From: Clostridia bacterium
GTDB lineage: Bacteria > Bacillota > Clostridia > TANB77 > CAG-508
Assembly (NCBI GenBank): GCA_017429505.1
Contig: JAFROW010000008.1
Location: forward strand, 503 to 64,502
Direction of reading: 5' to 3'
DNA length: 64,000 bases
Below the pieces are notes generated by a model. That model was not told the origin of the DNA, did not search any database, and saw only the letters and a program-made list of their open reading frames with translations. The position numbers were made by a program, and so were the translations under genes. Positions 48,216 through 62,077 of the stretch are shown here, one piece after another (positions within the stretch are counted from its first letter, which is position 1; every line of letters starts with the position of its first letter).

Positions 48216-51020
48216 TCATCTTTCTTTACTCATACTTATATGTTCAATAGCTTTATAAAAATTATTTAAGGTATAATATCCTCCCTTATATTGAAAACTT
48301 TTTGAATTAGGTTTCTCTATTTTATCGTTAAATTTAAATTCATTATTTTTTTCAAAATCAATATCATAACACAATTTTTCGGGCATTTTAATATTTATAA
48401 CTCTAACTTTTCCTTCTTCGTCTGAGATAAATTTGTTATTTTTTATTGTTACATTGTTGCACTTTGTAAGAGTAAGCATTTCCGAGTCTTTGCTACCACA
48501 ATTCTGTAATTCATTACCTTCAAAAATAACTTTATAAACTGTTCCTCTTTTTTCTTCAAATCCGCCAATCTGGACACCATATAAACAATTTAAAATGTAA
48601 TTATTTTTTACTGTAATATTCTCTGTTTCTCCATTTTTTGTTCCAGAATATGCAGTGTTTGCTATTTCTGCACCTATTTCAATTCCGCCCTCACATAAAC
48701 TTACTGTATTATTTTCTATTAAAATATCTTCCCCACCATCTACATAAATTCCGTAAGCTGAATCTGGATCATAAGGAGATTTACACTTACTAACATTACA
48801 ATTTCTAATTGTACCATTTCTTGGTCTATCTAACTTCTTATCTTCACAAGTACCTTGATTTCCACAAATACATATTCCAATATTTGATTTTACATTATTT
48901 GAAGTAATCATAACGTTTTCTATTAAAAAGTTTGTAATATTGCCTTCAAATGAAATTACTTCTGAGAATCCTGCTGCAACATCTTTACACTTGCAATTTT
49001 TAACTACTATGTTATTAATTGGAGTAATACTGCTTCCTACAACATAAATTGCATTAGAGCCTTTATCTGGATCTTTTTCATGCACACATCTTATATCTTC
49101 AAATGTACAATTATCAATTGTAATATCTGAAGTATTATCTCCATAAACCTTAACTCCTTGAGAATTATCTGCTAACATATGTGCAAATACAAATCCTTCT
49201 ACATATATTTTTTTTGAATTTTTTATTGAAAATAAGCTTCCACTTAGATTTTTTCCATCTATTATAACTTCTCCTTCTGCTTTAATGGTTATATCTTGTT
49301 TATTATGTATTTTTACTTTTTCATTATAGTCCCCTTCTTTAACAATTATAGTATCACCTGGTTGTGCTTTTTCTACCGCTTCTGAAATAGTTTTATATGT
49401 TCGTTCATCTTCGCTATCTTCTTTAGATACATAATATATATTTCCATTATTATTTTGAGTGTCTGCACCAGTGTTTTCGGTAGATTGATCAGTTGTAGAG
49501 TTCTGAGATACGTTTTGATGATTTTTTAAATATATTTCTTTTTCTACATCTTGTATAGCTTTTTCTATATTTTCAATCAGCTTCTTTTGTTGTTCTGGGT
49601 TTACTATATGTATAGCAGCATCTTTATTTCCATAAACTTCATCTTCTTCACCTATTATGTCTCCATTTTCATGTGCTAAATTATGTTTATTGTTTGTTAT
49701 TTCTATATAATATGCATAATCTAGCTTGCTACATAATTCTTTACTATGTTCATTAAATTCTTTTAGTTGATTTCTTCCATTTTCATCAAACCTATTTGGA
49801 ACATATTCTTCTTGAACCAAAATAATTGCATTAGGATATTTTTCGTGAGCTTCTTCTATTAATTTGTCCATATCACTCTTTACTAAATCGTTAACTCCCA
49901 TAGATATGTATACTCTTGTAATAGTAGTATTTTCATTTGCAGATTGCATCCATTTTATTCCATCAGCTGTTGTTGCGCTATCTACTGCATAATAGTTTTC
50001 TTCTTTAATACTTTTAGGTAATAAATGCTTTATTCCATTCATTCTAGAGTGAGAGATTATGACCATGTTTTCATTGAAAAAGTCTGAAATATCTCCTGTG
50101 AATGGTTTTCCTTCAATTGTTTTCGCCTCAGAATTATTTGTGTCTGTTGCTTGAGTTTGATTGTCAGATTGGGTTTGAGTTTGGTCTAAAGTTTGAGATA
50201 AATCTGTATTATAATAATATAAGCTTCCATCTTCTATTTCTGGAAATACTAGTGGCTCATCTGTATAATCTAAATAAAATTTCCAACCATAGTTTCCAAA
50301 AATCAAAGTTCCAATCATTCCATATAAAGCAAGTCTAAAATTTCTGTTTTCTTTTTCTTCTCTTATTTTGTTCTCTTCTCTTTTTAATTTCCATTTATTT
50401 AAAGTTCTTTTTATAAAGCCTTCTTTTTTTGGTTCTATTCTTTTTAATTGACTGTCACTTTTTTTTGTTGGAATTTCTTCTTTCTTCTTATCTCTATTCT
50501 GTATAATAGCTGTATCTTCGCCTTTAGTTTCACTTTTATTATCTTCTTTTCTTTTTTCAGAATCAGATTTGACTACATTTACAGCTTTTTCTTCTACTAT
50601 TCCTTCAGAAACTATTTCTCTTTCTTTTGAATCAACTTCAACAACATTTACAGCTGTATCTTCTACTTTTTCATCAGGAACTATTTTTCTTGTTTTTTGT
50701 TTTTGCTTTGATTGTGTTTTTGCCTGCTTGGTTAAATTACTAGGATTTTTTTGTCCTTTTATTATCTCATCTGGATCTATTCCAAATTTTCTTATAAAAA
50801 CTTGCTTTGTAGGATATATATATGGTGAATGAATTGACTTTCCTCTTTTATTTAAAAACTCAATTTTATATTTAGAAGATTCTTTTTTCACTTTTAATTC
50901 ACAGACTTTTTCAAGCTTTTTTCTTAGTTCATAAAAATCTTCCCTATCACTATATTTAAAATCAAAGTATTTTTTATTTTTTTCTATTATATCCCCTTTT
51001 TTACTACTATACGTAGACAT
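48216..51020 (-). CDS. Single-pass membrane protein: SGNH-like domain plus right-handed parallel beta-helix (pectin-lyase fold)
   Basis: TM at about aa 230-250; SHSRM/MGVND/AIH SGNH-like blocks; YKTISEAVEKAQPGDTIIVKEGDY and YGIYVDGGEDILIENN repeats. Confidence 0.8.
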   Translation of the reverse strand: MSTYSSKKGDIIEKNKKYFDFKYSDREDFYELRKKLEKVCELKVKKESSKYKIEFLNKRGKSIHSPYIYPTKQVFIRKFGIDPDEIIKGQKNPSNLTKQAKTQSKQKQKTRKIVPDEKVEDTAVNVVEVDSKEREIVSEGIVEEKAVNVVKSDSEKRKEDNKSETKGEDTAIIQNRDKKKEEIPTKKSDSQLKRIEPKKEGFIKRTLNKWKLKREENKIREEKENRNFRLALYGMIGTLIFGNYGWKFYLDYTDEPLVFPEIEDGSLYYYNTDLSQTLDQTQTQSDNQTQATDTNNSEAKTIEGKPFTGDISDFFNENMVIISHSRMNGIKHLLPKSIKEENYYAVDSATTADGIKWMQSANENTTITRVYISMGVNDLVKSDMDKLIEEAHEKYPNAIILVQEEYVPNRFDENGRNQLKEFNEHSKELCSKLDYAYYIEITNNKHNLAHENGDIIGEEDEVYGNKDAAIHIVNPEQQKKLIENIEKAIQDVEKEIYLKNHQNVSQNSTTDQSTENTGADTQNNNGNIYYVSKEDSEDERTYKTISEAVEKAQPGDTIIVKEGDYNEKVKIHNKQDITIKAEGEVIIDGKNLSGSLFSIKNSKKIYVEGFVFAHMLADNSQGVKVYGDNTSDITIDNCTFEDIRCVHEKDPDKGSNAIYVVGSSITPINNIVVKNCKCKDVAAGFSEVISFEGNITNFLIENVMITSNNVKSNIGICICGNQGTCEDKKLDRPRNGTIRNCNVSKCKSPYDPDSAYGIYVDGGEDILIENNTVSLCEGGIEIGAEIANTAYSGTKNGETENITVKNNYILNCLYGVQIGGFEEKRGTVYKVIFEGNELQNCGSKDSEMLTLTKCNNVTIKNNKFISDEEGKVRVINIKMPEKLCYDIDFEKNNEFKFNDKIEKPNSKSFQYKGGYYTLNNFYKAIEHISMSKER

Positions 51021-51047
51021 CTTTCTTCTCCCTATAATTATTCTTAA

Positions 51048-52865
51048 CTATTTTTCCTCTCTAGGATCAACATCAGTTTTCACTAAAATTACATCTTTAT
51101 AATCTCCACTATCTACTACATTTGAACTTATTTTATTATAACTTATTGGAACACGTAAATGTTGTAGTTTTCTTTGTCTATCTAATTCTCTTCTTATAAA
51201 TTCACTTTGTATTCTTTTAGCCTTTTTTCTTCCTTTTCTTTTTTTATTTGCATTTACGAAAAGCACAACAGCTAATTTCGCAATATTTTGCGCAGTTTCC
51301 TTGGCTTTCTTTATTGCATCTGTCTTCCATATAAAACCTTTAGTTATTATATTACTTTGAATTACAACTTCATCTTTTTTCAAATCTTCTTCCATATCTT
51401 CTTCTATAGATAATGAACCATCTTCTTCATATGTAATTATTTCTTTCTTTTTTTCCTCTATTTTCATTGAAATTGCAGGCTGATTACCACGTGTATCAAT
51501 AACACTATTTATTTTTCTTAAATAACTTCTATAATTTCTCAATTTTTCTCCAATAGGGCCTTCTTCAAAACTATGTTTAGCTTTATCATATAAATAATCA
51601 TAGAACTCATTTGGTTTTCCGTTAAAGTCTCTTACTAATCGTATCATCTCTTTTGTGTATGGCATATTTAATTTTGCCCATTCTCTTCTTGCAGATTTTG
51701 TTTCATATCCTCCAAATGGATTAGTTATTATTATTTCCCAATCTATATTATCATCTTTAAAATCTTTTTTTTCATCTTTTGTTTTAAATTCATATCCTAA
51801 ATCCATTAGTTCTCTTAAAGTCTTATGTGCTCCATATTCTATAAACTTAATTTGTTCTCCTGTTGGTATATAATTTCCATCACTATCAAGTTCAAACCCT
51901 TTTTTTGTTTTTCTTACCTTATTTTTCCTACATAAAATTTTTATTGTTTGACTAGATATTTTGTTTAAAAATTCACATTGTTTCTCATTAAGAAAAGCTA
52001 CTGACTTAGTTTCCTTATCAACTGCATAATATTTTTCACCATCAAAAAGTATAGTTATAGAGTTATATTCATCCTTCATCCAATCTGTTAATTCTTTTAC
52101 TGCAGTTAAACTATATTTATTTCCTTCAGAATCAAGTTCTTGCATATAAGTTTCTAGAATATAATTTATTTCGTTTGCTAATCGATTTTCATTTGTTAAA
52201 CCTTGCATGCTTGAAATATACCTTGAAAACTTATATGGAAGACAATGTCTTTGTCCATTAAACTCTACAATAAATGTTCCATCTGTTAATACATCTATAA
52301 TATATTTAGGTACATTTTTGTTGTTTATAGTTTCTAATGTATCTGTATCTAGCTCTTTATCTGAAGGATTTAAAAACATGTTTTTTATAATGTTTTGTTT
52401 AATAGCTTTTATATCTCTATATATTGAGTTTTCATCATCTTTATCATATATATCAAGTTTTTCTATAAGATGTATTAATTCTTGATCAGTAACATATATT
52501 TCTTTTCCTTTTAAACTAATCTTACATATTCTATTTTTATCTATTTGAATAGAATCTCCAGACTCTTTATATAATTCAATTATTTGAAATGGAATTTCTC
52601 CATTTTCTGTTTTTTCAAGTTCTTCACGAAAAAATCTTCTATATGATATTTGTTGACTAGTTCTTCTTGCCTCTTCTACACTTTTTGCCATTGGAACTTG
52701 ATCACATTCTTTAATAAATTCTTCCATAGCTTCTATAAGAGTAAGTTTTAACTTTTTTAGTTTTCTTCTATCCGCTTCTGTATTGCTTTCTATTCTAATC
52801 ATATTAGCATTTATATTTTTCTTTCTATTACTAATAAATTGTAAAAGCTCTTCTAAACTTGGCAT
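51048..52865 (-). CDS. Hypothetical protein, 605 aa
   Basis: Long ORF, SD GAGGAGG, closely spaced with its neighbours; no recognisable motif. Confidence 0.8.
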   Translation of the reverse strand: MPSLEELLQFISNRKKNINANMIRIESNTEADRRKLKKLKLTLIEAMEEFIKECDQVPMAKSVEEARRTSQQISYRRFFREELEKTENGEIPFQIIELYKESGDSIQIDKNRICKISLKGKEIYVTDQELIHLIEKLDIYDKDDENSIYRDIKAIKQNIIKNMFLNPSDKELDTDTLETINNKNVPKYIIDVLTDGTFIVEFNGQRHCLPYKFSRYISSMQGLTNENRLANEINYILETYMQELDSEGNKYSLTAVKELTDWMKDEYNSITILFDGEKYYAVDKETKSVAFLNEKQCEFLNKISSQTIKILCRKNKVRKTKKGFELDSDGNYIPTGEQIKFIEYGAHKTLRELMDLGYEFKTKDEKKDFKDDNIDWEIIITNPFGGYETKSARREWAKLNMPYTKEMIRLVRDFNGKPNEFYDYLYDKAKHSFEEGPIGEKLRNYRSYLRKINSVIDTRGNQPAISMKIEEKKKEIITYEEDGSLSIEEDMEEDLKKDEVVIQSNIITKGFIWKTDAIKKAKETAQNIAKLAVVLFVNANKKRKGRKKAKRIQSEFIRRELDRQRKLQHLRVPISYNKISSNVVDSGDYKDVILVKTDVDPREEK

Positions 52866-52898
52866 TTTTTACCTCCTCGTTTTTTATCTTGCTTATTA

Positions 52899-54323
52899 TT
52901 ATCTATCTATACCTTTTTCAAATATTTTTCCAACATTCGAATTTTTGGGTTGTATCGTTGTATTTTCTAAAAAGTTATTTTCAAAAGCTGTTGTCGTTGT
53001 ACTTCTTTCAAATGCATTTTTAAAAGCTTTTGTTTTTCTTCCCTCAAATGCATCTTCAAAAGCACTTGCTACTTTTTCTATACCTTTATAATCTATAAGC
53101 TTTGGGTCTAATCTAATATATTCTTTTAGTAGATATGTAGCTGCTTTAGCTCCACTTTCAAACTCTTGTTCATTATAAATATTTACTGTACTTTTTCCTT
53201 TTTTCACAAAAATATCATAGCTTCCTTTAAGATAATAAGCCATTTGTGGTTCAATATCATCAAATTTATAATCTGTACCATTTTCTGTATTATATTTTTC
53301 TAAAAATTTTACATAATCTTCCTTTAAAGAATATGACCATTGCATTACTCCAAAAAATTTGAATGCATCTCTTGAAACTGCATTAGGATTAAGTCCTGAT
53401 AAAAATAGCATATCTACTAGTGTTCCTATATTTTGTTCATCTTTTACTCCTTCACTTTTTAAATATGCATAAGCTTTAGATGCTACTTCTATCTGTTTGT
53501 CTGTTAAATTTAAAGTATTTTCATTTTCTAATTTTTGTTTTGCTTCTTGATAGTACATATATTTATATATTGCTTTTTCATATTTTTCTTTCAAAAGTTG
53601 TCTATCTTCTTTACTTATTTCTCTACCAATGCCTAATTCTTCATCTATAATACGATCGAAATTTTGATTTTTTATCATCCTGTCCCAAGGCACCTTTGCA
53701 AACCAAAGAGGTCTTATATCTATATTATTATTATTTCCTATATTGTATTTTAACGGAAATCTATCTACTTTCCCCTCTATTCCTGTATTACCTTCAACTG
53801 TTGAAAACTTGCCGTCTTTATAATCTATAACTATTCCCATATGATCTATAAAGTCAGGATTACTATCTGAATCGAAAAATACAAGATTTCCTGCTTGTGG
53901 AATATGACTTGCATCATTTTTTACTATTAATCCTTGATCTTTATACCATTTTAAAAATTTAGCAATGTTTAAATATTTAGCTCCCTGTGGTATTACATCT
54001 TCTGATATTCCACTTCGTTTTGCACTGTCCATTATAAATTCTGCAGAACTTACATCACTTATTTCACCTATATGGCTTTGAGCTTCTTTTACATATCTTT
54101 CTATTAAAAGTTGTCTGTCTTTTTTACTTATGTCTCTACCAATGCCTTGTTCCTCATCTTCATTTTGAGTATTGTTTTGATTTACAATGCTTACATGTTG
54201 TAAATTTGGTGTTAATGCAACCATAATTGCTGCTATAATTCCTGCTAATCTAACACTCATTCCTCTTATTATTCCTTTTTTACTTTCATTTTTATTTTCC
54301 ATTTCTTTCAATCTCCTTTTCAT
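52899..54323 (-). CDS. CHAP plus phage-tail-lysozyme-like protein with both catalytic residues substituted
   Basis: Paralogue of the C-terminal half of 54330 (EDVIPQGA, VFFDSD, KFSTVEGNT, WFAKVPW); Cys replaced by Ser and Glu by Leu. Confidence 0.8.
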   Translation of the reverse strand: MKRRLKEMENKNESKKGIIRGMSVRLAGIIAAIMVALTPNLQHVSIVNQNNTQNEDEEQGIGRDISKKDRQLLIERYVKEAQSHIGEISDVSSAEFIMDSAKRSGISEDVIPQGAKYLNIAKFLKWYKDQGLIVKNDASHIPQAGNLVFFDSDSNPDFIDHMGIVIDYKDGKFSTVEGNTGIEGKVDRFPLKYNIGNNNNIDIRPLWFAKVPWDRMIKNQNFDRIIDEELGIGREISKEDRQLLKEKYEKAIYKYMYYQEAKQKLENENTLNLTDKQIEVASKAYAYLKSEGVKDEQNIGTLVDMLFLSGLNPNAVSRDAFKFFGVMQWSYSLKEDYVKFLEKYNTENGTDYKFDDIEPQMAYYLKGSYDIFVKKGKSTVNIYNEQEFESGAKAATYLLKEYIRLDPKLIDYKGIEKVASAFEDAFEGRKTKAFKNAFERSTTTTAFENNFLENTTIQPKNSNVGKIFEKGIDR

Positions 54324-54329
54324 TTTTTA

Positions 54330-56726
54330 TTATCTTTCCTCACTTCTAAAGGCTAATCCTTTTTTATTTTCTTCAATTATTTGTCCATAGTATCTTTCTT
54401 TTTTTTCTTCTATCTCTTTATCTTCTGCTTTACATAAAAATTCTTCTACTTGTTTTACAAATTTGTTCCAATCAAAATTAGTAACATCTTTTTCATTTAA
54501 TTGTTTTGTATAACTTGATAAAATTATATTTTTTTGATTTTTTTTATTAAAAGATATATTTTTTTGATGATTTTTTATTATATTGTTATAGAACTTTTGC
54601 GCTGTTTCACCTCTGTTTGGATCAATATATTCTGGTCTTTCCCAATGTTCACAAAACCACATTGCTGCTTCTCTTGCATCTTTAAAATCTGTTTCCAAAT
54701 ATGCTTCAATTGTACGTTTATCACCATATGTATCTGGATCTCCATATAATAAATAATCCATTTGCACTAAGGTATTTCTCCAATCATAATTAGTGCCATG
54801 TTCTTTATTATATTTTTCAGTATACTCTAGTAAAGCTGTTTTTCGTCCCTCTGTCCATTGGCAATATCCTATTGAATCATATCCATCAGAAGATTTAGCT
54901 GCTATATGAAATGACGATTCATGATAAATATTTGCCCATATTCCAGCCATATGTATTAAATCTATATTTTTTTGTCTTAAAATATTAGCAACATCTTGAG
55001 CATTTTTTGATTGTTCATTATTAAATCCTAATCCTATGTCTACATCATCTGCTGTTATTTCACCTTTTATTGTTACTTGTGTTTGGCTTTTCTCTTGTTC
55101 TGGTACCATATTATTCCAAGGCACCTTTGCAAACCACATAGGCTTCATTTTTCCACTATTGTCAACTTTATTATCTCCAATTTTATATTTCAAATCATAT
55201 ACTGATACCTTCCCGCCTGTAGTATTTCCTTCAACTGTTGAAAATTTACCTTCTTTTGAATCTGTTACAACTCCTACATGATTTATCCATTCAGAATCAC
55301 CATCAGAATCAAAAAACACAATATCTCCTTCTTGTGGAATATAACTTCCATCATTTTTTACTATTAACCCTTGCTTTTCAAAAAACTTATACATCACTGC
55401 ACAACTTGCATATTGAGCTCCCTGTGGTATTACATCTTCAGGCACTCCATTATCATATGCCAAACGCATTATAGCGGCTGCACAATACTGATCTTTTGCT
55501 GAAGAACCTAATCCTAAATATTTAGTATATTTTTCGTCTTCATTTGTATCCCCCTTACGATTTTTAAATGCTTGTACATAATTATGTCTTGCATTTTTCT
55601 GCATTTGAGAAGACGTAAAATTTGAAACACTTTGAGATGATGTGAAATTTGAAACATAATTATTGTTATTATTTGTATAATAGTTTCCACCTTGATACCC
55701 AATTGCTTCGTCTAATTCTTCTTGAATTGCCAAACTACTGCTTGTTTCTACCAAATCTTTCGTTTCAATATTTATTCCAAAACCATTTAAAGAATATGTA
55801 GTTACATATAGTTTATTTGTATTAATGTCATATTGAACATCTGAGCCAAGTACTCTGTTTTTTGAATCACCTTTTTTATAGTATTCAGAAATACCTTTTG
55901 CATATATATAAATTGGTTGTTTATTTAATGCCATAGAATTTTTCTCATTTATTTGGTCTTTTATTTCTTTTGCTTCAACTTGGTACTCTTTTTCATCTAT
56001 CCAATAAATAGCTTCATTACCTATAAGCTTTATTTCTGTTCCCTTCTTTAATGTTTGCTCACCAAAAGCTTCTGTTTTTATTTTTACATCTTGTTTTGTT
56101 TTAAATGTATTTGCAATATTTAAATCAACATCATTTTTGGAAATTAATGCATATTTATCATTCCTAAAATCATATTTAATTAAATAATAGTCGCCATTTT
56201 CGACTTTTATTTTTCTTCCTGCAAAAAGCTTTTTTGATGGTATTTGTACCATTTTTTGTTCTTCTTTATCAGCAAATTTATATCCAAACATATTACATGG
56301 TATTGCTTGAATATTACTATCATCTTTAGTCGTAAAGAACCAATACTGTTTTTGCCATTGCAATGCTGTTGCATAAGCTTCAGGAGAAATGTTTTCTTCT
56401 GTCACAGTATCAGGAATTCCCAATGCTTTTCGAAATTTACCCATGTCTCCGAATTCTTTTTTTGCTGTTTCATTTAAGTCAAACATTTTAAATCCAACAT
56501 TTTCGACTAGTTGAAAAGTTTCATCCGTCATAACATCCCATAATATAGATGGACCGTTATCTATTTCTTTTTCTAGTTCTTCACTTATTTGCTCCTTACT
56601 TGAAAACTCAAATTTATCAACAAAAGTATGCCAATTGAGTAAAAGAGTAGCTGTTAAACCTGCCAATGCACTTTTTAAAATAATTTTTGGAATTTTAATA
56701 TTTTCATCTTCATTATTATCTTTCAT
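54330..56726 (-). CDS. Exported peptidoglycan hydrolase: CHAP amidase plus phage-tail-type lysozyme
   Basis: N-terminal hydrophobic segment; YCAAAI..PQEGDIVFF..HVGVV..VEGN; AGIWANIYHESS..GYCQWT..R..QMDYL..WERP. Confidence 0.87.
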   Translation of the reverse strand: MKDNNEDENIKIPKIILKSALAGLTATLLLNWHTFVDKFEFSSKEQISEELEKEIDNGPSILWDVMTDETFQLVENVGFKMFDLNETAKKEFGDMGKFRKALGIPDTVTEENISPEAYATALQWQKQYWFFTTKDDSNIQAIPCNMFGYKFADKEEQKMVQIPSKKLFAGRKIKVENGDYYLIKYDFRNDKYALISKNDVDLNIANTFKTKQDVKIKTEAFGEQTLKKGTEIKLIGNEAIYWIDEKEYQVEAKEIKDQINEKNSMALNKQPIYIYAKGISEYYKKGDSKNRVLGSDVQYDINTNKLYVTTYSLNGFGINIETKDLVETSSSLAIQEELDEAIGYQGGNYYTNNNNNYVSNFTSSQSVSNFTSSQMQKNARHNYVQAFKNRKGDTNEDEKYTKYLGLGSSAKDQYCAAAIMRLAYDNGVPEDVIPQGAQYASCAVMYKFFEKQGLIVKNDGSYIPQEGDIVFFDSDGDSEWINHVGVVTDSKEGKFSTVEGNTTGGKVSVYDLKYKIGDNKVDNSGKMKPMWFAKVPWNNMVPEQEKSQTQVTIKGEITADDVDIGLGFNNEQSKNAQDVANILRQKNIDLIHMAGIWANIYHESSFHIAAKSSDGYDSIGYCQWTEGRKTALLEYTEKYNKEHGTNYDWRNTLVQMDYLLYGDPDTYGDKRTIEAYLETDFKDAREAAMWFCEHWERPEYIDPNRGETAQKFYNNIIKNHQKNISFNKKNQKNIILSSYTKQLNEKDVTNFDWNKFVKQVEEFLCKAEDKEIEEKKERYYGQIIEENKKGLAFRSEER

Positions 56727-56735
56727 ATTCTTTCC

Positions 56736-59603
56736 CTATTTTTCTATTTCATTTTGATTGTCTTTATCTTTTTCTCCAAGTTTTCCTATTAATGTAAATC
56801 GTGCTTCAAGCTCACCTTGAGTTTGTTCTTTTACTTCTGTTCCTAAACATTTTTTATTATCTTCTGTTATTTTTATATTTTCTGGAGAACATATAGTCAT
56901 TTTTTTTCTACCAGTTCTAGCTCCCCATACATATTTATTAGTTGTGTTGTCATAATATATATGTATATCATTTGTTTCTATAAATACTTCTTTCCATCTA
57001 TCATTATATACAAGTAAATCTGAACTTGGTATAGTACCTGCAACATCCTTTCCAATAATAAGTTCACTTACAATTGCTGTATTGCCCACAATTAATATTT
57101 CCCTTCCTGCTTGTACATCATAAGCAGTTCCGTTTTGATCCGTTAATTTAGTATTTCTTATAACTAAAGCAGTACGTACAGTTTTTAATAAACTTCCATT
57201 ATTTACTAATGCATATATTTCTTTTATATTGCCATTTTCATCGACTATTTCATCTTTTATTACTCTACAATTTTTTTCTGCTGTATCAAACTTTGGATTT
57301 ACAGCATAATATGCAGGATACATTTTTTCCGAATTTAGCGAATATAACTGATTTGGATCTTCATAACTACCATTTTCATCACATATTATTCCTTGTGTAT
57401 TTGGCATTGGAATAACCATTGAATATTTCCTTTTTTCTCCTAACAGTCCAGCTACTGTTCCAAATAGTCTTTCCGCAAAATTTGGAATATCTCTTGCTCT
57501 TGGTTCTACTAGATTTTCTCCAGTTGTGTTTAATTTAGATAGAGTTGTAGCACCATTTTGCATATTTACATCATCTATTTTTATTATTCTTACACCATCT
57601 GATGTAGTTGCACCTTGTCTTGTGTTCAAAGTATTATTATCGCTTGTATTGGCTTTATATATCATATCTCCTACTTCTTTTTTATCTTTTATCTGTGCCA
57701 CAATTGCTTGTTGTTGTTCCACATTTAGTTCTTTTTTTGGTTTATAACTTCTTACTTTTGCATCTTTTGGAATTTGCAAATTAAATGTACTTATTGTATT
57801 TCCTTGAGTATCTTGAATCACATAAGGCACAATTTCAACATTCTGATATATTTCCGGAGTAATTACACCATGTGCTGATACCGAAAACTTTACACCATTA
57901 TTATATATAACACTATAAACAATTCCAAATTTTCCAGCTCTTGCAACTCTAATAGTTGACTCTGTTGTCGGGAATTTTTTAGAATTATCTTGCCACCAAT
58001 TTGAAATAGTATATTTTGGTTGAATTGCTACAATAAATTCTTCTATATTACTAGTTTTCATAGAATGGTGACTTAATTTAAATATATCAGCCCTAACATC
58101 AATCCCTTCTTCTAAAAGCTCTTTTTCTAAACCTGCTTCAATATCTCCACAAGTTAAGTAACGAATTTCTTTTCCATCTAAAGTTTGAACAGATATCCTT
58201 AATACTAAAGATTTATTATTTGTATAAGATTCATTATTATAATCTTTTCTTTTGTTATTTGGGTTATAAAGTACTTCAAATTTAGCCTTTCCTATATAAA
58301 ATGTATCATATTGTTTTAGTCTTACTACTCTTATACCCTTTTGTTTTGCAATTCTTTCTAACTTAGAATACATACTTTCTTTTCCTTCAGGCAAATATAA
58401 TGTATCTACTTTATAATTTTTCATTAAATATACTGCATTGCCCCAATGATCATCATGATTATGTGTAATTAATATATCAAAATGTTTATCTTTATAGTTT
58501 TTATCATTCATAAATTTAATAACAGAATCTCTTAAATCATCTTCCGAGGTATCTATCATTAAATAATGTCCATCACTTCCTATCATTGTCATATCACCAT
58601 GTGCTGTTCTTTTTATTTTCGGTTGTCCAGCACACTTTATGTTAGCACAATCAATTGTCATTAAAGTTTCATCTTGAGTAAAATTTACTATTTCAGTTGT
58701 ATTGGTTTGTTCATTATTGGTTGCTGTTTTACTATTTGTTTCTGTTACATTATCAGGTAATTTTTCATTATTAGATGAATGCTCATTATTTGTATTACTT
58801 AAAACATAACTAACATCAATCTCTTTTTCCTCATAGACTAATTTTCCTTTATCTGGATCAAAATATGCCTTAGTTGAATTTGGAAAGTCAAAAACCTTAA
58901 GGTGTATTATTTTTCTTTCTATACCTTTAGTACTCTTTGAATTAGCTTCGTGAACTTTCCCTATATTCACACCTTCTCCTTTTTTATGCCCAGAACTGCA
59001 TGAAACTTTTTTACCATTTCCTAAATAAAAATATACATGATTATTACGTCCACTTCCGTGATGTTCCCAAATAATATCTCCTGGAGACGCATTAGAATAA
59101 TCCCATTTTTCTCCTTTTTCAAAGTGAGCTACATCTACAGAATTTGGACAACCTCCATAGCCCCATTTTTCAGATTTAACATGTTCATTTAATATTCCTT
59201 CATGTTCCAATACTCTAAATATATACCAAGAACAATCTGAATAGCCTTTTTCTAATTTACCATGGTTTCTAAAATCTCCATGAGAAGAATCTATATAGGT
59301 AATATGTCCTCCCTTTTGAGTCGAAAAACTACATGCATAATTTAAAGTATCCTCAAGTTTTTTGATTGCTTCCAGATATTTTTCTGCATCAGTATTTGAG
59401 TTTTCTTCTATTTCTGTATTAGATTTTCCATCATTATTAGTAGTATTTGCCTCATTATTTTGTTCTATCTCTATAGCATAAACATTTTCTCCTATCGGAT
59501 TACTTGGTAATTGTGGAGTACTTCCTAGCATTGTTAAAGCAAGAGCTGCTGTACCCAATCTTATTCCTCTTTTTTTTGATTTTTTTTCAATTGGATTTTT
59601 CAT
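56736..59603 (-). CDS. Exported NlpC/P60 peptidase plus ComEC/Pce-type metallo-beta-lactamase-fold hydrolase
   Basis: Signal-like N-terminus; SDCSWYI..PGDII..HVYFYLGNG; THNHDDH, NNKSLV, GDIE, SHH. Confidence 0.87.
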   Translation of the reverse strand: MKNPIEKKSKKRGIRLGTAALALTMLGSTPQLPSNPIGENVYAIEIEQNNEANTTNNDGKSNTEIEENSNTDAEKYLEAIKKLEDTLNYACSFSTQKGGHITYIDSSHGDFRNHGKLEKGYSDCSWYIFRVLEHEGILNEHVKSEKWGYGGCPNSVDVAHFEKGEKWDYSNASPGDIIWEHHGSGRNNHVYFYLGNGKKVSCSSGHKKGEGVNIGKVHEANSKSTKGIERKIIHLKVFDFPNSTKAYFDPDKGKLVYEEKEIDVSYVLSNTNNEHSSNNEKLPDNVTETNSKTATNNEQTNTTEIVNFTQDETLMTIDCANIKCAGQPKIKRTAHGDMTMIGSDGHYLMIDTSEDDLRDSVIKFMNDKNYKDKHFDILITHNHDDHWGNAVYLMKNYKVDTLYLPEGKESMYSKLERIAKQKGIRVVRLKQYDTFYIGKAKFEVLYNPNNKRKDYNNESYTNNKSLVLRISVQTLDGKEIRYLTCGDIEAGLEKELLEEGIDVRADIFKLSHHSMKTSNIEEFIVAIQPKYTISNWWQDNSKKFPTTESTIRVARAGKFGIVYSVIYNNGVKFSVSAHGVITPEIYQNVEIVPYVIQDTQGNTISTFNLQIPKDAKVRSYKPKKELNVEQQQAIVAQIKDKKEVGDMIYKANTSDNNTLNTRQGATTSDGVRIIKIDDVNMQNGATTLSKLNTTGENLVEPRARDIPNFAERLFGTVAGLLGEKRKYSMVIPMPNTQGIICDENGSYEDPNQLYSLNSEKMYPAYYAVNPKFDTAEKNCRVIKDEIVDENGNIKEIYALVNNGSLLKTVRTALVIRNTKLTDQNGTAYDVQAGREILIVGNTAIVSELIIGKDVAGTIPSSDLLVYNDRWKEVFIETNDIHIYYDNTTNKYVWGARTGRKKMTICSPENIKITEDNKKCLGTEVKEQTQGELEARFTLIGKLGEKDKDNQNEIEK

Positions 59604-59626: not shown

Positions 59627-62008
59627 TTAATAATCTATCTCATCTCCGTCCCATTCTTCTCCTAATGCATCAAATGAGCTTTTTTCTGTGTCATCTGTAG
59701 TTTCTTCACTTTCTTCTAAATAATCTTCTTCATCTTGACTTTCATACTCTTCTTCGTAACTATCTTCATCTTCATATTCATCTTCTGTTTCATCATCAAG
59801 TGAATATTCTTGGTCATTTTCTTGCGCTATTAAATCTTTAAGAAGTTCTCCGTCTTTTAGACTAATACTACCAAAATGATCATTTTCATCTTCTACAGTA
59901 TATCCAGAGCTATGTTCACATAATGTAATATGTACTCCTTCTCCGAATATAAATTCTGGAATACCTTCTATATTAGTTGATGGATAAACATACAATTGTC
60001 CAATATTCTCATCTATCGTATATTCTCCCACTGGTGTATATCCTTGAGTTATATTATCTGTCATTTCTTCTTTTTTGTATTTATCTATACTTGAATTAAT
60101 TTTTCCTGTTTCTTCTCCTTCTATTGTAGTTACCATCATTCTTGGTTGTTCATTATTTTGTTCTTCTGACATTATTCCTATAGCATTAATCTTTTCTCCA
60201 TCTGCTGTAATCTCTTTACTTCCTAAAAAAGTCATTCCGCTTGGAATTATATTCTCTTCTTGTTCAGCTGTAGTAACTTCTTCTTTAGTTGTTAAAAATG
60301 TTGGAATTAATGTAACTAATGATATTTTATTTTTTCCATCATTATATTCCTCCATTATATAATCACCTATTTCCATCTTCTCGAGTTTTTTTGCTGATAT
60401 TTCACTTGTATAAACATTATCACCATCATTATAGAAATAAGTATAGTAATCATTTTCATTTGCATCTTGAGGATTATAATCTAAAACATCTATGTAACTT
60501 CCACCTTCTATCTCAATGTCATCTGTTACGTCTAATACTGTATTTCCATCTACACTCATTCTAGTTATTACAGGAGTTATCTCATACCTATCTACATTTT
60601 CTACAACTCCATCTTCTGTTATAATAACATTATCTTCTGGAATTACAAATTCATCTCTATCCATTTGAAGATAACCTAATTTTGTTTCTTTAGAAATAGG
60701 ATCTGTATATTTAACAATATAATATTTCCTATTATCTTCTTGTAAAACTTCTGGCATTTCTTGTTTTGTGTCTTCAAAAGCCTTCTCTTCCTCACTTCCT
60801 AATTCAGTAACAGTTTCTGTAGATGTATTTTTTAAAGAATCTGATTTATTATAAAAAAAAGTTTTTACAGATAAAAATGCAGTTATCATCATACCTGCTG
60901 CTCCTAAGATAAGTATAGGCATTCTTTTAAACTTTCTATCTACTCCGATATTTTTTGGTAAATTTTTTAACCTTCTTTTATTATTTTGTTCTGTAAAAAT
61001 ATCATTTACTATACTTGTTGCTTTTGTTTTTACTTTTGATGTTTGATAATTTGCAATCAATGTTTTTAAATCTTCTACACTTATTTCACACAAATTTCCA
61101 TAATTATCAAAAACTCTATCTTTTTTTAATTTTTCATATTCATCTTTTTTTAAATCTAAAATTGGTTGAAGAATTTTTTTCATTAAAACATCTTTACTAA
61201 TCTCATTTTCTTCAATTGCAAGAACAAGTTTTTTTAAAACAGATATATCTCCATGTTTATTAACTATTTTCGAAATCATATTAACAAATTCTTTTAAATG
61301 TACTGGTTTATCAATACATTCAAATTTATCCATAAAATGCACAGCAATTTCTAAAATTTCATTTCCTTTCGGATCACATGCAATCTTGCTAATAACAATT
61401 ACAAAATTACGATTATTAACTTTATTATTGTCACCAAATTTTTCACTTATTGCTTTTATAATTTTCTTAGTCTCTTCTAAATTAATTTTTGAGTAACTTT
61501 TTTTTACTCCTTCAATAATACCTTTCTCAATATTATATACATAATCTCCTTCTGCATCTCTTTCTGAATCACTTTTGATATAGTTATAATCATATGTATC
61601 ATACAAATAATTTGTTAAATATGCTAAATCTTTGTATATAGATTCACACTTAGATTTTCTTACTATTTTACTTTCTAAAAGTTCTCTTAAAACTTCTACT
61701 GAATTATCATCTATATGTTGAACAGAATCTATACTTTCTGCGTTTACTTTTTTGTTATACTTTAATGCATCAAAGTAAATTCCTCGCCATGGAAAACGTT
61801 CTTCATTTTCATTGTTACTACTTATGTATTCTTGAGATTGTTCTTGTTCTTGAGCTTCTAAATCTGATGAATTTATTGATTGTGCATCTAAATTATCTGA
61901 TGAAGAATTTGATTGTGGTTGTTCCTCTCCATTATTAAATTCAACTATTACCTTTCTCGCTCCAACTTTTTGAACTTGTGTTAAAAAATCTTGTTCATTA
62001 ATATTCAT
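59627..62008 (-). CDS. Single-pass membrane protein with large helical N-terminal part, beta-rich C-terminal part and acidic tail
   Basis: TM MPILILGAAGMMITAFLSV mid-protein; E/D-rich last ~60 aa; SD GGAGGAG. Confidence 0.8.
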   Translation of the reverse strand: MNINEQDFLTQVQKVGARKVIVEFNNGEEQPQSNSSSDNLDAQSINSSDLEAQEQEQSQEYISSNNENEERFPWRGIYFDALKYNKKVNAESIDSVQHIDDNSVEVLRELLESKIVRKSKCESIYKDLAYLTNYLYDTYDYNYIKSDSERDAEGDYVYNIEKGIIEGVKKSYSKINLEETKKIIKAISEKFGDNNKVNNRNFVIVISKIACDPKGNEILEIAVHFMDKFECIDKPVHLKEFVNMISKIVNKHGDISVLKKLVLAIEENEISKDVLMKKILQPILDLKKDEYEKLKKDRVFDNYGNLCEISVEDLKTLIANYQTSKVKTKATSIVNDIFTEQNNKRRLKNLPKNIGVDRKFKRMPILILGAAGMMITAFLSVKTFFYNKSDSLKNTSTETVTELGSEEEKAFEDTKQEMPEVLQEDNRKYYIVKYTDPISKETKLGYLQMDRDEFVIPEDNVIITEDGVVENVDRYEITPVITRMSVDGNTVLDVTDDIEIEGGSYIDVLDYNPQDANENDYYTYFYNDGDNVYTSEISAKKLEKMEIGDYIMEEYNDGKNKISLVTLIPTFLTTKEEVTTAEQEENIIPSGMTFLGSKEITADGEKINAIGIMSEEQNNEQPRMMVTTIEGEETGKINSSIDKYKKEEMTDNITQGYTPVGEYTIDENIGQLYVYPSTNIEGIPEFIFGEGVHITLCEHSSGYTVEDENDHFGSISLKDGELLKDLIAQENDQEYSLDDETEDEYEDEDSYEEEYESQDEEDYLEESEETTDDTEKSSFDALGEEWDGDEIDY

Positions 62009-62048: not shown

Positions 62049-62077
62049 ATTATATCATATTTTCTTTTTTTAGTCAA
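62049..62077 (-). promoter_or_regulatory. Sigma-A promoter heading the 62008-48216 gene run
   Basis: TTGACT-17-TATAAT with extended TG. Confidence 0.7.

Follow-up and report, generated by a model that had tools for sequence, protein, structure and literature searches.

Six genes and their endings

In a stretch of 64,000 nucleotides from the genome of a Clostridia bacterium of the CAG-508 lineage (TANB77), referred to here as the window, an operon of six genes on the minus strand encodes five consecutive proteins that end in an acidic residue followed by arginine or lysine. The window corresponds to G000:C7:503-64502, where G000 is the source genome (1.98 Mb, ~27% GC, 96% complete); its relatives are uncultured gut Clostridia, and the genus comprises 338 species-level genomes. 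The arginine form of the ending recurs across the genus and may be an address label for a type IV secretion system (T4SS). A match to a sigma-70-type promoter (TTGACT-17-TATAAT with TG; 62049..62077, minus strand) lies ~40 bases upstream of the operon and agrees with 11 of 12 consensus positions, being a consensus match only.

The first gene (59627..62008, minus strand, as are the five that follow) encodes a 793-amino-acid (aa) protein of no family, with one membrane-strength helix at ~365 and a very acidic C-terminus that ends ..GDEIDY, without an Arg/Lys tail. The second (56736..59603) encodes a 955-aa chimera of an NlpC/P60 domain, a ComEC-type metallo-beta-lactamase (MBL) fold and an unknown C-terminal region; its N-terminus is weakly signal-like, and it ends ..NQNEIEK (EK codons 56739-56744). 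Next come a 798-aa protein with CHAP and phage-tail-lysozyme domains (54330..56726), ending ..AFRSEER (ER codons 54333-54338), and a 467-aa paralogue with CHAP and lysozyme folds (52899..54323; open reading frame (ORF) of 474 aa, likely start at 54302), ending ..EKGIDR (DR codons 52902-52907). The remaining two are a soluble, species-specific 605-aa protein of no known family (51048..52865; ..DPREEK, EK codons 51051-51056) and a 934-aa chimera in which a weak GDSL/SGNH-like match is joined to a beta-helix domain (48216..51020; ..SMSKER, ER codons 48219-48224). Cell-wall-hydrolase domains are borne by three of the five tailed proteins.

All of these termini, including that of the first gene, are exactly as given by the first-pass annotation, which had proposed an export or targeting signal shared by largely unrelated proteins. 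The description as unrelated breaks down for one pair: the 467-aa protein is a paralogue of the 798-aa one (34% over 325 aa), with a tail that does not align to the other's. No Pfam or NCBIfam match was found at the C-termini of the five, nor any C-terminal alignment common to them. Residues C415, H483 and E603 of the 798-aa protein, which from knowledge of the family we take to be its likely catalytic residues, are invariant in 8/8 aligned orthologues. The 467-aa paralogue has Ser at the Cys position and Leu at the Glu position and, with both catalytic positions replaced, is likely inactive; encoded beside an intact CHAP-lysozyme gene, it is possibly a decoy, binding or immunity protein. For the 798-aa protein AlphaFold gave no usable model (pLDDT 39.6), a PDB sequence search gave no match, and the ESM Atlas held nothing usable for the 605-aa and 793-aa proteins. 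Counterparts of the island's domains occur elsewhere in the same genome (beta-helix, in a surface protein, 46% identity; NlpC/P60, 42%; MBL, 26%), and the tail is absent from these secreted proteins of the source genome.

The five endings are real and beyond chance. Within the window [DE][RK] ends only these five proteins and, as also reported at first pass, an 88-aa toxin (..HYRDK), and genome-wide it ends 67 of the 1656 genes of at least 80 aa in our own gene calls. Five such endings in a row arose in 6 of 20,000 shuffles of gene order, and in none of 20,000 when shuffling was restricted to lineage-specific genes, defined as those with no BLASTP match over half their length in another sampled genome. 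The shuffles placed three [DE]R endings inside a span of four genes 97 times in 20,000, and they gave a run of five 22 times in 5,000 (0.4%) if a match to whichever pair of residue classes was counted. Because [DE]K is common in shared, housekeeping-type genes (26/843), only the Arg form is distinctive. The last 20 residues of the five proteins carry net charges of +1, -2, +2, 0 and -1.

The endings might have been a by-product of overlap with the next gene's Shine-Dalgarno site, a possibility raised at first pass. We rejected it, since at four junctions the site is situated beyond the stop codon and at the fifth it overlaps nothing but the stop, so that all follow the last codons, and since the Arg excess among relatives described below persists with the next gene opposite or at a distance above 15 nt (11/257 lineage-specific versus 5/940 shared).

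Directly downstream of the island (window:47400-48112) lie two short genes for coiled-coil proteins of 98 and 96 aa, with no family over the cut-off, which resemble each other at their C-terminal ends (..LNNIPFSVRK and ..LDQIPSEIVS). On the other side, just past the window end (G000:C7:65064-65837), a 257-aa orphan with a weak lipoprotein-like N-terminus is encoded on the same strand two genes upstream of the island; it ends ..WEDPEK and may be a sixth tailed protein.

The arginine ending in orthologues and relatives

The terminal Arg is retained in the orthologues of the 798-aa and 934-aa proteins, as expected of a signal under the proposal made at first pass. Endings in the 798-aa family are SEER, DEGR, DEAR and GEGR, with R in every listed full-length member (one truncated record was excluded), and those of the 934-aa family are SKER, SQER (three) and EQGR, at 72-95% identity; among these Arg-tail orthologues residues -2 to -4 vary and the terminal Arg is fixed. 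One member of the 934-aa cluster with a divergent end (P0035) appears frameshifted, and four more distant beta-helix homologues (P0026-P0029) are without the tail, three of them starting like signal peptides. The 955-aa family ends EIEK, EIEK and EMEK, P0007, which ends otherwise, appearing incomplete. The 605-aa protein has an orthologue with the end DPREEK and a distant homologue with the end ..VDRND. The 793-aa orthologue ends ..EEEIEY. For the 467-aa protein no orthologue of full length was seen, the one on metagenome contig L009 being without the CHAP part.

The island is species-specific, with the 605-aa protein matched in 0 of 337 genus genomes, and a search of genome contigs gave no match to the 955-aa protein. 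CHAP/lysozyme matches occur in 27 of the 337 genomes, and pieces of the island are present in contigs of four other gut runs, too fragmentary for the tail codons to be scored. The contig L009, from another strain or species, retains the island gene order. When the 955-aa gene is compared with L009 and P0006-P0008, whole domains (NlpC/P60, beta-propeller-like and SGNH-like) are seen to have been exchanged between strains with the C-terminal region kept, and the gene has modules in common with a ~1000-aa protein, P0008. The lysozyme domain of the 798-aa family also occurs in two allelic versions.

Enrichment of the ending was measured outside the source genome, in ~2.0 Mb from seven genus members and in 0.4 and 0.35 Mb from two other families (G038 and G039). 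In the seven relatives, [DE]R ended 12 of 340 lineage-specific proteins and 5 of 1242 shared ones (p=2e-5). With Gly also allowed at -2, which was admitted only after the orthologue endings of the 798-aa protein had been seen, the counts were 16/340 and 6/1242 (p=3e-7); by relative, the lineage-specific figures are 7/151, 2/56, 4/58, 3/32, 0/15, 0/21 and 0/7. The [DEG]R excess was confined to proteins without a hydrophobic segment, where the motif ended 14 of 205 lineage-specific and 2 of 718 shared proteins of the relatives (p=4e-8), 12 of 518 and 1 of 500 in the source genome minus the five (p=0.002), and 27 of 725 and 3 of 1218 when soluble proteins were pooled. Proteins with a strong signal or membrane helix showed no enrichment (2/334 versus 6/612).

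The internal rate of the dipeptide is near equal in the two classes (0.60% versus 0.68%), so the excess is not compositional, and it is present in all three length classes. Sub-terminal variants, in which [DEG]R is followed by 1-3 residues, were not enriched, nor were [DE][DE]K and [IMLV]EK endings. Half of the lineage-specific class of the source genome is inflated by partial sampling, which would dilute the signal, not create it. The Arg form thus stands above background at the extreme C-terminus of otherwise unrelated proteins. Of the motif first proposed, [DE][RK], the Arg part stood and the Lys part, which was not enriched, did not; position -2 had been drawn too narrowly, as E, D, G or A all occur there.

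Tailed proteins and a candidate secretion machine

Zeta toxins offer a sample chosen for its domain, irrespective of the tail. They are present in 100 of the 337 genus genomes, compared with 3 of 290 from outside families f1 and f3. Tails were read from the 30 best-scoring loci: of 32 distinct genus zeta toxins, 16 end in R, 5 in K (four of them ..IEK, as in the 955-aa protein) and 11 in other residues, and the tails include DSDER, HDHDER, GEDR, GESR and GTER. At <70% identity, with four sequences from other genera of the family included, 8 of 20 end in R against a background of 3.7%. The terminal R forces at least 4 changes on the zeta tree, the R label did not cluster there significantly (a value as low came from 69 of 500 shuffles), and zeta toxins from two further genera of the family likewise bear the tail. 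A control from outside TANB77 (3 genomes, one scorable end) was too small. Usually a small gene (~75 aa, no assigned family) precedes the zeta gene; as a candidate antitoxin, it leaves room for the toxins to be part of ordinary toxin-antitoxin pairs. The zeta expansion in the genus is chromosomal (loci L132-L167), and its insertion neighbours are presumably miaB-like, cdsA-like or rmlA-like genes.

Among 35 hand-picked tailed proteins, 16 have Pfam matches, of effector-like or nucleotide-enzyme kinds, and 19 have none; domains on tailed proteins include transglutaminase-like, NUDIX, PP2C, HD, TPR, GT4 and zeta. Many tailed genes of the relatives stand singly, flanked by shared chromosomal genes. 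The ending is also found on relaxases: five of the seven intact ones in the source genome end in R (GLER, RDAR twice, DRVR and DRIR), the remaining two in KGKE and KYLK, with three broken relaxases excluded.

Co-occurrence with the ATPase of a T4SS or of a type VII secretion system (T7SS) had been suggested as a check at first pass. For the T4SS, chromosomal VirD4 (PF02534) and VirB4-like (PF19044) genes are present in 41/41 genomes searched; in NCBIfam, the CD1115-family VirD4 scores above the cut-off and the CD1110-family VirB4 match below it. In the source genome a cluster of VirB6-like, VirB4 and pilin-like genes (C8:287913-295763) lies beside parAB and dnaA, in the parAB-dnaA-gyrB region, with a second VirB4 at C8:315324-317674 and the core VirD4 at C4:108337-110442. 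This VirD4/VirB4/pilin machine has no adjoining relaxase, the nearest on those contigs being ~100 kb or more away. The core VirD4 has an acidic C-terminus that is conserved across three families (..LQKELEAKFDELFG), and G039 carries seven tandem type IV pilin-like genes with starts M(E/D)NASKA.. (L186:13079-17001).

The sequence data reveal a tag, not its reader, and a real tag could be read by something else: a protease (as a degron or for protection), a chaperone, a type IV pilus machine or a T7SS. A T7SSb locus (L168:105-10925; G000:C4:96-107 kb) with EssC, a YukD-like protein, WXG100 and two genes with similar N-termini does lie two genes from the core virD4, where it holds likely toxin/immunity genes, and the source genome also encodes PilB/PilT-type ATPases; moreover, the tag was not seen in other VirD4-bearing families. 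The T7SSb locus is, however, patchy in the genus. Full EssC was found in only one of five relatives tested and not in the tail-bearing G015, G004, G024 and G005 (93-99% complete), which makes the T7SS an unlikely receptor; none of the five island proteins has a WXG100 or LXG-type domain. A degron would give no export route, which peptidoglycan hydrolases without a strong signal peptide need, and relaxases, known T4SS substrates, also end in Arg. We therefore consider another reader unlikely, if a serious candidate.

Alternatively, the tail could be the T4SS signal of mobile elements, its bearers being cargo or relics of integrative and conjugative elements (ICEs) or integrative and mobilizable elements, and its readers ICE coupling proteins. 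Numerous relaxases and VirD4/VirB4 genes of ICE type are indeed found in the source genome, R is the last residue encoded by several ICE genes, and the island's restriction to one species fits such an origin. Yet no integrase or relaxase is found among the flanking ORFs, the window's only tRNA is 40 kb away, the gene order is kept on L009, surface proteins of the host itself have domains akin to those of the island, and tagged genes in relatives lie mostly between shared chromosomal genes. We regard this explanation as quite improbable.

Because the Arg ending is enriched on lineage-specific proteins without signal peptides across the genus, it is likely an address label for the T4SS. Our preferred interpretation, to which we assign a probability of roughly 55%, is that the Arg tail marks effectors of the chromosomal T4SS of TANB77 with a minimal signal at the C-terminus. 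An acidic or Gly residue followed by a terminal Arg would route signal-peptide-less proteins to the chromosomal VirD4/VirB4 machine; VirD4 itself would presumably read the tail, which may descend from the Arg-ending tails of conjugative relaxases. Delivery would likely be to neighbouring bacteria, the peptidoglycan hydrolases and zeta toxins pointing to bacterial targets. On the island, the Arg form would label the 798-, 467- and 934-aa proteins, and the two Lys-ending proteins may take the same route; Lys endings are plausible as variants, given that IEK and R replace each other among zeta toxins, though they are without statistical support. The weak signal-like N-termini could serve export in the target cell or ordinary Sec export.

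Several points weigh against this T4SS interpretation. The [DE]K ending was not enriched in the relatives (12/340 versus 40/1242, p=0.4), nor clearly so among their soluble proteins (11/205 versus 20/718, p=0.06), so the two Lys endings of the island may be nothing unusual. In three sparsely sampled relatives (G003, G007 and G019), [DEG]R ended 0 of 43 lineage-specific genes. In the two other families with a core VirD4, of which ~0.35-0.4 Mb each was seen, lineage-specific and shared counts were 0/137 and 0/206 (G038) and 0/124 and 2/185 (G039); an alternative hydrophobic/acidic tail was not found either among their 51 and 50 soluble lineage-specific proteins. Of the 20 non-redundant zeta toxins, eleven have a last residue other than R or K, and the relaxase tails are basic clusters, the island tails having net charges of -2 to +2. 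As to method, the lineage-specific class rests on partial genome samples and our own gene calls, related genomes were treated as separate although kin are not independent, and about a dozen end-patterns were tried. Across bacteria, moreover, Lys and Arg are enriched at the C-terminus by 2.32 and 1.76 (PMC7246954).

This last point is the core of an explanation without any dedicated signal, in which a general preference for C-terminal Lys/Arg in K/E-rich proteins combines with chance over a large scan. The enrichment at position -1 in the source genome (K 2.1-fold, R 1.7-fold) matches the published values, [DE]K behaves as background, and since a class-pattern run of five appears in 0.4% of shuffles, a scan of many windows will meet such runs. 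The general bias explains the Lys background but leaves the class-specific Arg excess unexplained: the latter is limited to soluble lineage-specific proteins and replicates outside the source genome, the lineage-specific genes of G038 and G039 show none of it, and the published bias is described in PMC7246954 as qualitatively independent of functional category. We accordingly think it rather unlikely that there is no signal at all.

The N-termini also tell against the T4SS. In three of the five they look like signal peptides, with a hydropathy of 1.6 in one and 2.0 in another, which fits Sec export, and together with PHROG endolysin and tail matches they would suit ordinary Sec-exported autolysins or decayed prophage tail/lysis genes with incidental endings. 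However, the hydrophobic segments of the island proteins are weak, at about the 10th percentile of the source genome's N-terminal helices or lower, and the 605-aa protein lacks one altogether; a search of viral contigs gave no relative of the 798-aa protein, and no phage family matched the other seven proteins scanned. An origin of this kind is very improbable.

Known secretion signals and meaning for the lineage

The effectors of the Agrobacterium VirB/VirD4 system and the relaxase MobA carry positively charged, Arg-dependent C-terminal signals (PMC10025392). The present tail is similar in its C-terminal place, in Arg, in being common to candidate effectors and relaxases, in its unrelated passengers and in the VirD4-type coupling protein. 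In Agrobacterium, a Gram-negative organism, the signal is an Arg cluster within 19-50 residues (same source), whereas here, in a Gram-positive lineage and known from sequence alone, a single terminal Arg follows an acidic or Gly residue at a net charge near zero; the island tails are thus neither Arg clusters nor net positive. Like the Legionella Dot/Icm E-block, the tail would be a short, low-information, acidic C-terminal signal on many unrelated lineage-specific proteins; Dot/Icm, however, is a type IVB system with chaperones and eukaryotic targets, and no fixed terminal Arg is described for it in the accessible part of PMC10025392. With the Xanthomonas XVIPCD effectors it would have in common antibacterial cargo and a C-terminal address for VirD4, but the XVIPCD is a conserved domain of ~120 residues (PMC10025392), and the island tails have no alignable common domain. 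The tail resembles C-terminal T4SS signals, yet it falls outside both the Arg-cluster and the XVIPCD definitions.

The machine itself resembles that of Patescibacteria, which are also monoderm, with small genomes and a chromosomal, mostly relaxase-free T4SS that has VirB2-like pilins near dnaA; they belong to a different phylum, and the accessible parts of PMC12857230 and PMC12102498 describe no substrates or substrate signal for it. Host dependence in TANB77 is not supported by the auxotrophy markers, which are mixed: purE was not found in 4/5 genomes, whereas fabZ/A and pyrF were found in 4/5. In the source genome the purE and fabZ/fabA families were not found, and pyrF and guaB are present.

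In the open-access literature, taken without supplements, we found no account of TANB77 T4SS substrates or of an acid-Arg tail. Whether any Gram-positive T4SS has become a dedicated effector translocator is described as a long-standing question in a 2025 review, which names one example, S. suis 89K (PMC12857230). A simple terminal tag, if true, would make this question testable without culturing the organism and would supply a list of candidate effectors in a large gut lineage, so far uncultured, with 338 species-level genomes in the genus.

A wider proposal can be put forward only tentatively, as we find it somewhat doubtful: that CAG-508 (TANB77) uses a relaxase-free chromosomal T4SS as an antibacterial effector translocator, in which a 2-4-residue acid-Arg tag inherited from relaxases labels dozens of effectors. 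These would be fast-evolving wall hydrolases, zeta toxins, NUDIX proteins, phosphatases and transglutaminase-like proteins. If true, such a system would parallel, in Gram-positive bacteria, the effector systems of Xanthomonas and Legionella, and it would suggest that these cells live as predators or epibionts of other gut bacteria. Bacteria of this lineage are reportedly linked to immunotherapy response, and the tag, if true, would bear on how they live in the gut.

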